Part shown: positions 53,410 to 64,000 of the stretch, one piece after another | How positions within the stretch are numbered: the first letter of the stretch is position 1 | Layout of the letters: each line of letters starts with the position of its first letter | NCBI RefSeq assembly: GCF_003018255.1 | Contig: NZ_CP027440.1 | Length of the DNA stretch: 64,000 nucleotides | From: Escherichia coli | GTDB taxonomy: Bacteria; Pseudomonadota; Gammaproteobacteria; Enterobacterales; Enterobacteriaceae | Direction: 5' to 3' (one strand) | Position numbers: made by a program

Positions 53410-56400
53410 TAACCAGGATAATTAGCGAATATCTCAATGCCAGGGGCGTGGCGAGGTGCAAGAGTGTGTATTACGTTTAAATCACATTATCTTGCAAAGG
53501 GATTGGTTATGAACTCACTACGTTATTTTGATTTTGGTGCTGCACGCCCCGTTTTGTTATTAATTGCCCGTATCGCCGTGGTCTTAATTTTCATTATTTT
53601 TGGTTTTCCCAAAATGATGGGCTTTGACGGTACGGTCCAATATATGGCCTCGCTGGGCGCGCCGATGCCGATGCTGGCAGCGATTATTGCGGTAGTTATG
53701 GAAGTGCCCGCCGCGATATTAATCGTGCTTGGCTTTTTCACCCGTCCGCTGGCGGTGCTGTTTATTTTCTACACGCTGGGTACGGCGGTGATTGGTCACC
53801 ATTACTGGGATATGACCGGCGATGCGGTTGGGCCAAATATGATTAATTTCTGGAAGAATGTCAGTATCGCTGGCGCATTCCTGCTGTTGGCAATTACCGG
53901 GCCGGGGGCGATTTCTCTCGATCGGCGTTAGGAAAGATGCCGGATGCGGCGTGAACGCCTTATCCTGCCTACCGTTCCAACACCAATTGTAGGCCTGATA
54001 AGACGCGGCAAGCGTCGCATCAGGCATCGTGCGCCGAGTGCCGGATGCGGTGTGAACGCCTTATCCGGCATTTTATAAATTACAGTAACGCAACCCGCAA
54101 CGACATCTCTGAAGTTGTTGATTCCCCTGGTGCAAGCGCAATGAGGTCACCACCTTCCGGGCGATGATGGTCATCTGGCGCATGGCTCATCGGTTCCAGA
54201 CAGAAGAAATCAAACGCATATCCTTTATCAAACGCCGGGTCGGAAACAAAGATGAAATAACACGGTGCAGGTGGCGTCGTTTCTATGATGATGGCATAAC
54301 CCTCCTGCGGCTGCTCGATGCGGGCCTGACCATTCCATCCGGCAAAACCATTGTTCACCCACTGGCGCGGCAACGGCGCGAGCTGGTTAAAATCCAATTC
54401 TTGCGGTAGCTGCTCGCAAAACTCACCCGCCAGCCACTGCTCCCGCTCCAGCCAGTAACCGCTCGCCTGTGCCTGAATCCGCGTTTGCGGCGACAACGGA
54501 AAATAAGGATGCCAGCCGGTACCAAATGGCAGCGTCTCTGCCCCTTGATTGGTGACAGAGAGTGTCACCGTCAGCGTATCCGCCGTTAAATGAAACGTCT
54601 GGCTTACCCGATAGTGATAAACACCGCTGCGATGTTCATACACCAGACACAAGATATCATCATTGCGCGAGACACATTGCCACTGCCCCAGCCAGCCGTC
54701 GCCGTGCAGATAGTGCGCATCCCACTCAACATTCGGTTGCAGTTGATACTCACGCCCCTGCCAGACAAAACGGTTGCCGCTCACCCGGTTTGCAAATGGC
54801 ACCAGCGGAAAACAAGAGGCATCGGTTGCCACACCGTTTTTTTTACCAGGACGTAAGAGCGGCGTCGTATCGCGCCAGAAGCCTTCGATTACGCCGCCCT
54901 GGTCAGAAACGCCCAGCTTTAGCGACCCGTGGGATAAGGTATAGATGGTCATCCGCTAACTCCTTAATCCGGGAAGTTAATCACAACTTTCCCGCATTTG
55001 CCGCTTGCCATCAGTGCATAAGCATCTCCCGCCTGTTCCAGCGAGAAGCGGTGGGTAATGGCGTTACGCGGCCACAGTTTCCAGTCCGTTAAATCGTGGG
55101 CGCATTTTTCCATATGGAACAGACTGGTCACCCAGGAGCCGATAATCCGCCGTTGATGGTGCATCAGGTCGGCGCTAACCTCGAACTCGACTTTTCCGGT
55201 TTCACCAATGTAAACCACGCGTCCCCAGTCAGCGGTGGATTGCAGTGCCAGTAAGCGACCTGCGGCATTACCGGAACAATCAAGCGCAACATCCGCGCCG
55301 CCGTGAGTGAGTTCGGCGATTATCTGCGGCAGACCTTCGGTGGTCGCTAAATAGCCGTGATCCATCACTCCTAACTGTTTCGCCATCGCCAGACGTTCCG
55401 GCAGCATATCAACGCCGATGATCCTTTTTGCACCGCGACCTTTCGCCAGCATCATCGCCATCATGCCGACCGGCCCCAGACCGACCACCAGTACGTTATC
55501 ACTGCCGGAAACTTCGCCGCGCAAAATCCCTTCATACGCTGTACCAACGCCGCAACTGATAAACGCACCATCTTCGTAACTCAGTGCATCCGGCAGGAGG
55601 ATCAGATCTTTTTCTTCCGCCAGCAGATATTCGGCATGACCGCCGTCACGCTGCCAGCCGTAAGCCGCTTTTCCTTCGCCAGTACAAGAGATAGGAAAGC
55701 CGCGACGGCAGTTCGGGCAAAAACCACAGCCAGAAATGTGATACACCAGCACACGGTCGCCCTCTTTAAAATGGCGGCAGCCTTGCCCCATCGCCACAAT
55801 CTGCCCGCACGGTTCATGACCGTTGATAAATCCCTGGTATAACGGTTTATCGGGTGCCGCTGCCGTGGCACGGTGTTGATGATAGATATAGTGGACATCG
55901 CTTCCGCAAATCCCGGAGGATTTCATTTTGATCAGTACCTGGTTAATCCCCGGCGTCGGCACCGCAACTTCCCGCAGATCGACGGTCGAATTTCCTGGTA
56001 AATAAGCTGCCAGCATCGTTTTCATAAATCCCTCATTAACAATACGATTAATTTTCATCCCTGCCGCACCCGCGCCAGGGGCGTTAAGGTTTAGCGTTTC
56101 GCTTTACTGCTACGCTGAGTCAGCAAGATATTCGCCAGCACCGCCACCACGATGATGACGCCGCGCACCACCTGCTGGAAAAAGGAGTTAATCCCGAGCA
56201 GCACCAGACCGTTACCGATTAGCGTAATCACCAGTACGCCAAGCAGCGTACCGAACAACGAGCCGCGACCACCGGAAAGCGCCGTACCGCCAACCACGAC
56301 CGCGGCGATGACGTCAAACTCCAGACCGTTTGCGGCACCTGCGTTACCGGAACCGAGGCGCGCCGCCAACAAAATGCCGGTCACCGCCGCTAATAATCCC

Positions 56401-62400: not shown

Positions 62401-64000
62401 GCTCTGATGCCCTTCACCCCCTTTCACTGCCGGGTTGGCCCACCACAAGAAATGACGCGGCGTGGCGTTGCCGTTATAGACGCGGCTGGCAATTTCCAGT
62501 GCCGCCCGGTCAGGGCGCAGGGTGAAACCTGTCATCACCTGTAAACCGTGCATCGGCTCCGTTTCGCCGACCCACACGGTTTGTGCGCCGTCTTCATGGG
62601 CTTCGAGGGTGAAATCGACGGGCATAAAGGTGGTCGGGCGATGGTGTTGCGGCCAGTTAAACTCAATCCCGCCGGAGATCCACGGCCCCAGCAACCCCAC
62701 CAGCGCCGGTTTAATGACTTCATTATGATAGACAAAATCGCGCTGTTTCACTTTATCCCACGCGCGATGCACCCGACCGCCCAGCTCCGGCAGGATCATC
62801 ACTTTGATGTAGTCGTTTTCCAGCCACACCGCCTGCCAGGATTTCAGGGTTTTCTGCTCGCTCAGCGTATCGGTCACGCCGTAGGGATAAACCGCGCCGG
62901 ACGATCCCTGATAAACGCGATTTTCCAGGAACATGGGATGTATATCCTGCGGCCCGGTTTCATAGGTCGGGATCTCAACGCGCTCTTGCCACACTTTTAC
63001 TGGAGTCATGGTGCCCTCAATATTAACAAGACATACTGAATTAAAAGATTTGTGGCAGTGTATTGAACAATCTGGCAATGTTTTCGCGGAATAATCACGC
63101 AATTAACTAAACAAGGTTTAGTGAAGATGAGAGCCTGCATTAATAATCAACAGATTCGCCACCATAACAAATGCGTGATTCTGGAACTGCTGTACCGGCA
63201 AAAGCGCGCCAATAAATCAACGCTGGCCCGGCTGGCGCAAATTTCGATTCCGGCGGTCAGTAATATTTTGCAGGAACTGGAAAGCGAAAAACGGGTGGTG
63301 AATATCGACGATGAAAGCCAGACGCGCGGGCATAGTAGCGGTACATGGCTGATTGCGCCGGAAGGTGACTGGACGTTGTGCCTGAACGTGACGCCCACCA
63401 GTATTGAGTGTCAGGTTGCTAATGCTTGTTTAAGTCCGAAAGGTGAATTTGAGTATTTACAGATTGATGCACCGACGCCGCAGGCGCTGCTGTCCGAAAT
63501 CGAAAAATGCTGGCATCGCCACCGTAAATTGTGGCCGGACCGTACCATCAACCTGGCGCTGGCAATCCACGGTCAGGTTGATCCGGTGACCGGCGTGTCG
63601 CAAACCATGCCGCAAGCGCCGTGGACAACGCCGGTTGAGGTAAAGTATCTGCTGGAAGAGAAGCTCGGCATTCGGGTGATGGTCGATAATGACTGCGTGA
63701 TGCTGGCGCTGGCGGAGAAATGGCAAAATAATTCGCAGGAACGGGATTTCTGCGTGATCAACGTTGATTACGGCATTGGCTCGTCGTTCGTGATTAACGA
63801 GCAAATTTATCGCGGCTGTTTGTATGGTAGCGGACAGATTGGTCACACCATCGTTAATCCGGATGGCGTCGTCTGCGACTGTGGACGTTACGGCTGCCTG
63901 GAAACCGTCGCCTCGTTAAGTGCATTAAAAAAACAGGCGCGGGTATGGCTAAAATCACAACCGGTTAATACTCAGCTTGATCCTGAAAAACTGACAACAG

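Follow-up and report, generated by a model that had tools for sequence, protein, structure and literature searches.

What does the yph locus of Escherichia coli do, and why should it pair a sugar transporter with YphG, a very large protein rich in tetratricopeptide repeats (TPRs)? We followed up this question in a window of 64,000 nucleotides (the whole stretch of DNA that was analysed, contig NZ_CP027440.1), in which positions 53509-64000 are the E. coli yph region: yphA on the plus strand, a cluster of repetitive extragenic palindromic (REP) units, yphB-C-D-E-F-G on the minus strand, and yphH, cut by the window end, on the plus strand. A first-pass annotation of this DNA had described a sugar uptake and catabolism cluster with a mutarotase-like protein, a Zn-dehydrogenase, a permease, a tandem ATPase, a binding protein and YphG of about 1093 aa, next to a divergent ROK regulator. 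That gene content was borne out by the open reading frames (ORFs), by megablast against complete E. coli genomes, by the RefSeq annotation and by Pfam, and the gene families fit sugar uptake and catabolism. The reading we prefer, to which we assign a probability of roughly 45%, is that the locus forms a composite system for a galacto-configured sugar in which YphG would be an enzyme acting at the anomeric centre. New here are a mutarotase fold with an altered catalytic set in YphG, fused rigidly to a TPR solenoid; the pairing of YphG with a sugar porter across phyla; the two-module make-up of the locus; and a likely galacto-configured substrate.

The yphG gene occupies positions 59728-63009 on the minus strand. 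The longest ORF (59728-63102) would encode 1124 aa from a TTG codon; the ATG at 63009, giving 1093 aa, is favoured because it has a GAGGG ribosome-binding site and because homologues align from residue 1. Residues 39-324 match DUF5107 (PF17128) with 188.9 bits against a cutoff of 24.4, and TPRs make up much of the remainder. An AlphaFold2 model of YphG, built from an alignment of 63 full-length relatives (mean pLDDT 95, pTM 0.92), consists of a large beta-sandwich (aa 1-345), a small second sandwich (aa 357-435) and an unbroken helical solenoid (aa 460-1092). On the minus strand, positions 61975-63009 thus encode the N-terminal DUF5107 domain (aa 1-345), with its aldose-1-epimerase fold and predicted sugar site; 61660-61974 encode a middle part (aa 346-450) comprising the small second sandwich and a linker, which is about 20% identical across the family; and 59728-61659 encode the C-terminal part (aa 451-1093 and the stop codon).

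The C-terminal part matched TPR_16 (58.4 bits) and other TPR models, was modelled as all-helical at pLDDT above 90, and gave structural matches to O-GlcNAc transferase (OGT), Ski3 and designed TPRs. Matches to lyase and phosphorylase structures did not improve when the full-length model was used, and we therefore regard the helical part as a genuine TPR and not an alpha/alpha toroid, a conclusion with which Foldseek concurs. The full-length model also superposed on 546 of the 575 residues of the solved structure 5CD6 at 3.7 A, with the attached TPR included. Because this structure is experimental, we take the fixed arrangement of sandwich and TPR to be real. The label TPR-rich given in the first-pass annotation is thus right for the C-terminal part but falls short as a full description, since the most conserved part of YphG is the N-terminal domain of aldose-1-epimerase fold.

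The N-terminal domain has the mutarotase beta-sandwich fold, and at the level of sequence it is linked to GalM-type epimerases through chained profile alignments alone. In this chain the N-terminal domain of YphG connects to a short DUF5107-like family (probability 95.8%), this family to the YphB family (96%), and the YphB family to the GalM-type epimerases (97.6%). The bridging proteins, of about 325 aa (310-330), match DUF5107 weakly (E=5e-5), are encoded next to YphG in Paenibacillus and Ruminiclostridium (five of the loci), and look like a branch of the aldose-epimerase superfamily that has gone without annotation. For GalM of L. lactis we take Glu304 to be the catalytic base, His96 the first active-site His and His170 the general acid. 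In the chained alignment, YphG-H122 (codon 62644-62646), which is at least 95% conserved, falls on the first active-site His in the HG(G/D/E) motif. The invariant E313 (codon 62071-62073), in the stretch YIELM...DNQPDF, falls on the catalytic Glu of the cLEPQ..PD (cLEP/cLEcQ) motif. At the position of the general-acid His, YphG instead carries an invariant asparagine, N192 (codon 62434-62436).

Conservation across the family is concentrated in this domain. Its median identity to distant members is 48%, and it is 54-58% identical to members from other phyla found by genome scan; conservation reaches at least 85% in a quarter of its columns (25%) and at least 95% at 27 polar or aromatic residues, a pattern that looks enzyme-like. 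In the TPR part, family-wide identity is about 25%, and the conserved positions are chiefly structural Ala, Leu and Gly, the exceptions being W563 and R782, which are invariant, and E880, which is 98% conserved. One family member additionally bears a CBM9 carbohydrate-binding module. Together these results make it very probable that the N-terminal part of YphG is a sugar-site domain of the mutarotase superfamily.

To place YphG in context, we turned to its relatives. HMMER searches of 1.84 billion representative proteins recovered 3926 YphG-family clusters at 50% identity (E<=0.001), mostly of about 1100 aa, and a genome scan found at least 592 YphG-encoding loci, with Enterobacterales, Aeromonas, Photobacterium, Bacteroidota, Bacillota and Planctomycetota among the matches listed. 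ORFs were called in 80 of these loci and clustered, and the cluster representatives were annotated; the neighbourhood counts that follow are given over 77 loci. None of the 77 close YphG homologues carries a signal peptide, and YphG is predicted to be cytoplasmic.

A Sugar_tr porter of the major facilitator superfamily (MFS; XylE-like, below the cutoff) directly adjoins YphG in 31 loci and lies within three genes of it in 48; a sugar importer is found on the same strand within three genes in 45. The porter forms a single orthologous group, with a median identity of 52.6% between Enterobacterales and other phyla. The YphG-porter pair has therefore been kept as a unit across phyla, and it may have moved between them as one. 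In loci lacking the MFS porter, CUT1 or CUT2 ATP-binding cassette (ABC) systems take its place. Where the first-pass annotation had seen an oddity in a giant TPR protein beside a transporter, the arrangement proves to be the conserved signature of a large family, and we hold a functional tie between YphG and sugar import to be highly probable. A small protein of the aldose-epimerase superfamily also accompanies YphG in 28 of the 77 loci (YphB-type in 14, GalM-type in 9, short DUF5107-like in 5). The regulator beside YphG varies by lineage, with ROK proteins in 14 loci, AraC proteins in 43, and LacI or two-component regulators in single cases. Because the regulators differ, the element shared by these loci would be a sugar and not a protein partner.

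This last point bears on whether YphG is an enzyme at all. The protein could be a non-catalytic sugar sensor or scaffold, whose pseudo-mutarotase domain would bind sugar while the TPR signals to a transporter, regulator or enzyme. The roughly 640 aa of true TPR, a protein-interaction fold that here has a few invariant polar residues (W563, R782 and E880), would suit such a role, as would the replacement of the acid His by Asn, and there are structural precedents such as PnsB2. However, no constant partner is evident, since both the regulators (ROK, AraC, LacI, two-component) and the transporters (MFS, CUT1, CUT2) change from lineage to lineage; ROK and AraC regulators moreover have ligand sites of their own. 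The identity of 48-58% across phyla in the N-terminal domain, with its many invariant acidic and His residues, and the repeated pairing with a small mutarotase, which suggests turnover of a free aldose, also argue for catalysis. We therefore consider the sensor explanation unlikely. If YphG did prove non-catalytic, it would represent a new kind of sugar-sensing TPR scaffold.

The neighbourhoods also speak to the identity of the sugar. Glycoside hydrolases (GH) of the alpha- or beta-galactosidase type (GH2, GH35, GH36 or GH97) lie within six genes of YphG in 42 of the 77 loci. The commonest hydrolase, present in 27 loci, is a relative of BT4151, an exo-beta-1,4-galactosidase from B. thetaiotaomicron (NF049890, 1150 bits, below the cutoff of 1500). 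Other enzymes encoded nearby include GH95, GH30, GH51, GH127 and GH115 proteins, sulfatases and GDSL esterases, and this set fits the breakdown of galactan, arabinogalactan or sulfated galactan. A Zn-dehydrogenase encoded beside YphG in one Bacillota locus was considered as a conserved partner equivalent to YphC; it is 28% identical to YphC and was not counted.

More distant relatives of YphG, encoded in Bacteroidota (positions 8001-11303 of loci L006 and L007, and two further protein clusters), have 20-45 extra N-terminal residues and may be secreted variants. Their genes have SusC/D, sulfatase, GH16 and pectate-lyase-like genes as neighbours in a polysaccharide-utilisation locus; one protein has a C-terminal CBM9 module and another an endonuclease/exonuclease/phosphatase domain.

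A second line of evidence comes from the genes that follow yphG. The order in most Enterobacterales, Aeromonas and Photobacterium is ROK gene, yphG, MFS porter gene and yphB-like gene, with the ROK gene divergent from the rest. A different order, with yphFEDC(B) directly behind yphG, is found in E. coli, E. albertii, two Enterobacter-like strains and Budvicia diplopodorum. The yphFEDCB cassette is inserted exactly between yphG and the ancestral position of the porter and epimerase genes, and the MFS gene is retained after yphB in the three non-Escherichia genomes and lost in E. coli. The cassette thus appears to have replaced the ancestral MFS porter in the E. coli lineage. All five cassette genes also have orthologues in Acidisoma cellulosilytica, Vibrio nigripulchritudo and a third genome (L093), where yphG is absent and the regulator is of the GntR/FCD type. 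Compared with the E. coli proteins, the binding protein is 52% identical and the ATPase 54%; the permease reaches 66-70%, the dehydrogenase 61-75% and the epimerase 40-50%. The dehydrogenase and epimerase genes overlap in the yphG-less cassettes. A tblastn search of plasmids with YphC gave no further cassette contexts.

A galactonate dehydratase gene adjoins the cassette in Acidisoma and Vibrio (577 and 339 bits against an NCBIfam equivalog cutoff of 311), and none is found in L093. The dehydratase gene from Vibrio has its match at the dgoD locus in 5021 E. coli genomes; a short-chain dehydrogenase is also encoded beside the Acidisoma cassette. The surroundings of yphFEDCB would thereby have the layout of an oxidative aldose pathway, with import, mutarotation, C1 oxidation and sugar-acid dehydration.

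From these arrangements the yph locus appears to be a composite of two sugar modules, one formed by yphH and yphG and the other by yphFEDCB. The single block of the first-pass annotation stands as regards the contiguous minus-strand order and fails as regards a single unit, given that the cassette is found without yphG in other bacteria. Identity between E. coli and Budvicia diplopodorum is uneven along the locus, at 90% for YphC, 80% for YphF, about 66-77% for YphG and 56% for YphB, and this unevenness agrees with different histories of the cassette and of the yphG module. The two modules very likely serve the same or closely related sugars. A YphB-family mutarotase is common to both, and on that ground both would handle the same aldose.

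We then asked what the cassette proteins themselves reveal, using Pfam and NCBIfam profile searches on each protein of the window, judged against the family cutoffs. None of the yph proteins in the window reached an NCBIfam equivalog cutoff; thus no substrate can be assigned by homology. YphB (54080-54952, minus strand) is a small protein of the aldose-1-epimerase family, mutarotase-like, with a match to PF01263 (Aldose_epim, 182 bits) and to PDB entry 3NRE (E=1.7e-201 over 288 aa). In the literature YphB figures as a structural template only, with no substrate given. YphC (54964-56058, minus strand) is a Zn-dependent medium-chain dehydrogenase (MDR) with ADH_N, ADH_zinc_N and Glu_dehyd_C matches, the last at 40.6 bits against a cutoff of 34.9. 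Its scores against named enzymes (Tdh, IolM, GatD, IdnD and others) reach at best 171 bits, against a cutoff of 380, and YphC would be either an aldose 1-dehydrogenase of the galactose type or a polyol dehydrogenase.

The remaining three genes, all on the minus strand, encode the transporter. YphD (56091-57089) is an ABC permease of the monosaccharide (ribose/arabinose-like) class with a BPD_transp_2 domain, whose best NCBIfam matches are RbsC (227 against a cutoff of 398) and AraH, also below cutoff. YphE (57114-58625) is a tandem ABC ATPase with two ABC_tran stretches that resembles AraG, XylG and AlsA, again below the cutoffs. YphF (58648-59631) is a periplasmic sugar-binding protein (Peripla_BP_4) with a Sec signal peptide, MPKK...LFARA|AD, and its nearest solved structure is 5HSG (E=1e-24). 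With a signal peptide-bearing Peripla_BP_4 protein, a single BPD_transp_2 permease and a fused double ATPase, YphDEF fits a CUT2 monosaccharide importer. Equivalence to the Rbs, Ara, Xyl, Als, Mgl, Ytf or Lsr systems was not found by NCBIfam, where scores lie far below cutoff (for AlsB, 64 against 335).

Two context lines, independent of one another, lead us to a galacto-configured substrate: the galactosidase-type hydrolases near YphG and the galactonate dehydratase near the cassette. The substrate, which the first-pass annotation had called unknown, is indeed without an assignment by homology, but the question is no longer fully open if these two lines are followed. A different class of substrate, namely a polyol, an inositol or another sugar not of the galactose type, would make YphC a polyol or keto-inositol dehydrogenase and YphF the matching binder. 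The best profiles for YphC are those of L-threonine 3-dehydrogenase and scyllo-inosose 3-dehydrogenase, its PDB matches include xylitol dehydrogenase, and one homologue of YphC is encoded in the surroundings of a TRAP transporter; YphF has weak matches to binding proteins for allose, rhizopine and ribose. All of these YphC and YphF matches, however, fall far below the family cutoffs. Translational coupling of the mutarotase with the dehydrogenase points to a free aldose as substrate, the galactonate dehydratase adjoins two of the three cassettes, and galactosidases are abundant around YphG. A polyol or inositol substrate has, in our judgement, a small chance of being correct.

Taken together, the preferred galacto-sugar reading could operate as follows. 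YphDEF would import a galacto-configured sugar (D-galactose, L-arabinose or D-fucose) or a small glycoside thereof. YphG would then act at the anomeric centre, either by cleaving a glycoside or by a conversion specific to one anomer or ring form. YphB would equilibrate the anomers of the free aldose, and YphC would oxidise the aldose to a lactone or acid, which in the case of galactose would feed the separate dgo (galactonate) pathway. YphH would repress the operon until the sugar is present. Glycoside cleavage or conversion of an anomer or ring form is the preferred activity of YphG because it best explains why a separate mutarotase is so often encoded alongside.

Several observations weigh against this scheme. 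The N-terminal domain of YphG has no match in PF01263, and BLASTP and hhalign comparisons with the YphB and GalM-type sets gave less than 1% probability. The Asn in place of the acid His would suit a non-catalytic binding domain as well. YphG matched no glycoside hydrolase, polysaccharide lyase (PL) or isomerase profile and had no whole-architecture structural match to GH or PL families, and the scheme gives no role to its solenoid, a true TPR unlike the helical toroid of lyases and hydrolases. For YphC, the best named profiles, L-threonine and scyllo-inosose 3-dehydrogenase, leave room for a polyol. The link to galactonate dehydratase is based on two of three cassettes, and a fourth YphC homologue (58% identity) has the TRAP-transporter surroundings mentioned above. 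This fourth homologue was set aside as a probable non-orthologue in an unrelated context. A hairpin follows yphG and weighs on its co-transcription with yphF. Furthermore, E. coli galK mutants are not known to grow on galactose, and for this reason any such route would have to be silent or minor in the laboratory. Finally, literature searches found no published function for any yph gene, for DUF5107/PF17128, or for BDI_1685 or 5CD6; the statement in the first-pass annotation that YphG has no assigned function holds in the literature searched.

A bolder extension of the galacto-sugar reading, which we put forward tentatively and judge somewhat unlikely, is that YphG represents a new and widespread class of cytoplasmic carbohydrate-active enzyme in which a TPR-clamped mutarotase-fold domain does bond chemistry at the anomeric carbon. 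Such an enzyme could cleave small galactosides or arabinopyranosides, or could catalyse a furanose/pyranose or other ring-form change, with material released from arabinogalactan or galactan as its substrate. An unrecognised step in galacto-configured sugar use would then be common to E. coli, gut Bacteroidota and soil Bacillota.

The conserved residues might also be taken to mean that YphG is simply a very large aldose 1-epimerase for the imported sugar. H122 and E313 do stand at catalytic positions, and galactose operons pair a transporter with GalM, an arrangement that the transporter-YphG pairing resembles. A giant mutarotase would nevertheless be redundant with the separate small mutarotase found beside YphG in 28 of the 77 loci, and mutarotation does not need an extension of 750 aa. 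The invariant Asn at the general-acid position and the lack of a PF01263 match also speak against plain mutarotation, and we find this explanation distinctly improbable.

Whether yphG belongs to the same transcript as the cassette depends on the junction between them. The gaps within the minus-strand block measure 11, 32, 24, 22 and 96 bp, the last being that between yphG and yphF. A GC-rich hairpin (59675-59711, minus strand) lies directly after the yphG stop codon, at the junction of the yphG module and the yphFEDCB cassette, and is made of nested perfect inverted repeats, TATTTGAGCG/CGCTCAAATA and TGAGCGGCA/TGCCGCTCA. Its inner stem, GAGCGGC/GCCGCTC, is kept across four genera with a changing loop, E. 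albertii, Enterobacter sp. BIGb0383 and strain RIT691 being among those that have it. A short T-run comes after the hairpin in RIT691, whereas E. coli has no U-tract there. The hairpin may be an attenuator or an RNA-stabilising element. Promoter and terminator scans, which performed at or near chance level, yielded nothing in the 96-bp gap or in the region between yphG and yphH, and no promoter-like site was seen in the gap. Co-transcription of yphG with yphFEDCB is likely on these grounds. That yphG is transcribed independently, with no functional link to the transporter, is very improbable indeed: the 96-bp gap with its conserved hairpin and the occurrence of yphFEDCB elsewhere without yphG would allow it, but the hairpin lacks a U-tract in E. 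coli, the gap lacks a promoter-like site, the cassette is inserted exactly between yphG and the ancestral porter/epimerase position, and a same-strand sugar importer lies within three genes of YphG in 45 of 77 loci, across Proteobacteria, Bacteroidota and Bacillota.

On its other side, yphG is separated from yphH by a divergent control region (63010-63126) with conserved motifs. An inverted repeat, TTAACTAAAC/GTTTAGTGAA, occupies 63103-63125, and motifs common across Enterobacterales include ACTAAAC-N3-GTTTAGT, TTGCGTGA and ACACTGCCA. The first of these adjoins or overlaps the 5' end of yphH. ACACTGCCA lies about 50 bp upstream of yphG and is kept even in the 52-bp intergenic region of Budvicia. 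These motifs are candidate operator or activator sites; no consensus sigma-70 promoter was found in the region by the scan. The divergent gene is indeed that of a ROK regulator, as had been annotated: yphH runs from 63127 to 64000 on the plus strand, with the first 291 of 397 aa inside the window and a full gene of 1194 bp in RefSeq. The Pfam matches of YphH are ROK (98 bits) and an N-terminal MarR-like winged helix-turn-helix at aa 16-53. Identification as NagC or Mlc was rejected, at 93 bits against cutoffs of 650 and 530. YphH has been termed the "third uncharacterized ROK repressor" of E. coli (PMC4288165).

At the other end of the region, yphA (53509-53931, plus strand) encodes a DoxX-family membrane protein (PF07681, E=2.6e-20; RefSeq). 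Its earlier inclusion in the cluster has to be dropped, as it is a neighbour outside the operon, on the opposite strand and behind the REP cluster. In some relatives a DoxX gene is found near the ROK gene. The REP cluster, of the bacterial interspersed mosaic element (BIME) type, lies between yphA and yphB at 53938-54075, with palindromic REP units in the sequence. An Rfam scan gave naRNA4, a REP-derived element, as its sole match (53992-54070, minus strand, 72.7 bits), and no riboswitch or leader. The gap between yphA and yphB measures 148 bp in the window, against 47 bp in strain XJ6.1, a difference that points to about 101 bp of extra REP units in the strain analysed here. The REP cluster also accounts for the matches of the 11-kb query at a median of 13 places in each E. 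coli genome.

The region is flanked upstream by the hca operon and, past the window end, by glyA. The hcaEFCBD phenylpropionate dioxygenase operon is complete (49195-53412, plus strand), lies directly upstream of yphA, and is ordinary and annotated. The yph stretch is 100% identical to that of strain JNE112863, and megablast found at least 80% of it in 5368 of 5426 complete E. coli genomes. Its GC content is mildly raised, at 0.53-0.57, with a composition near that of the neighbouring genes. The locus is thus part of the core genome; on these figures we rejected a horizontally acquired island, and the earlier label of island is misleading. Within the locus, GC falls to 0.46-0.48 at 58500-59999, which covers yphF and the yphG-yphF junction.

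Variant forms of the yph proteins occur among E. coli assemblies. In some, yphG is split or shortened; strain SCPM-O-B-8794 (locus L011, positions 2379-3728 and downstream) has it as pieces of 810 and 244 aa. Four protein clusters hold short YphG forms, including one of 900 aa with 1109 member sequences and others of 643-741 aa; the split and short forms may be true pseudogenes or fragments cut at contig ends. Additionally, E. coli proteins of 385-532 aa, in four clusters, join the BPD_transp_2 permease domain to the C-terminal part of YphC, one of them on 126 contigs, which points to a lineage with an allele in which yphD and yphC are joined by fusion or deletion.

YphG is among the largest proteins of the E. 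coli core genome without an assigned function, and its family extends to the polysaccharide-utilisation loci of gut and marine Bacteroidota. The yph genes were already annotated, and what the analysis offers is to narrow an unknown TPR protein down to a few substrates and point mutants that lend themselves to testing. A catalytic YphG would supply a missing step in the use of galactose, arabinose or arabinogalactan and possibly found a new family of carbohydrate-active enzymes.

Among known proteins, the closest counterpart of YphG is BDI_1685 of Parabacteroides distasonis (PDB 5CD6), the founding DUF5107 structure, on which YphG superposes with the TPR included. BDI_1685 is 21-24% identical to YphG, has 575 aa and lacks about 450 aa of the YphG solenoid, and as a structural-genomics entry it gives no mechanism. 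With GalM and other aldose 1-epimerases (PF01263, including YphB, 3NRE) YphG shares the fold, the His and the catalytic Glu, but it differs in N192 for the acid His, in its extra beta-domain and 640-aa TPR solenoid, and in often having a separate small mutarotase alongside. OGT, whose TPRs are among the best matches to the helical part, likewise carries a long TPR superhelix on a sugar-handling domain. In contrast to YphG, the domain order and catalytic fold of OGT are different and its TPRs bind protein substrates, for which nothing in YphG gives an indication. A mutarotase-like supersandwich serves as the catalytic domain in the GH186 beta-1,2-glucanases OpgD and OpgG. These enzymes are far more distant from YphG than true mutarotases are; they are periplasmic, lack a TPR and conserve other residues.

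At the level of the pathway, the cassettes of Acidisoma and Vibrio nigripulchritudo, with their GntR regulator and galactonate dehydratase, would resemble oxidative galactose/galactonate clusters of the De Ley-Doudoroff type. The E. coli yph locus differs in lacking a dehydratase, kinase, aldolase and lactonase, and dgoD lies at another locus. The sulfoquinovose (yih) operon of E. coli combines an importer, the glycosidase YihQ, the mutarotase YihR and downstream enzymes. YphG is unrelated to YihQ, a GH31 protein. We nevertheless propose a functional analogy between the two systems, in which the yph locus, like the yih operon with its mutarotase YihR (PMC5902678), would bring together a transporter, an enzyme that releases or needs a particular anomer, a small mutarotase, a redox or isomerase step and a local repressor.

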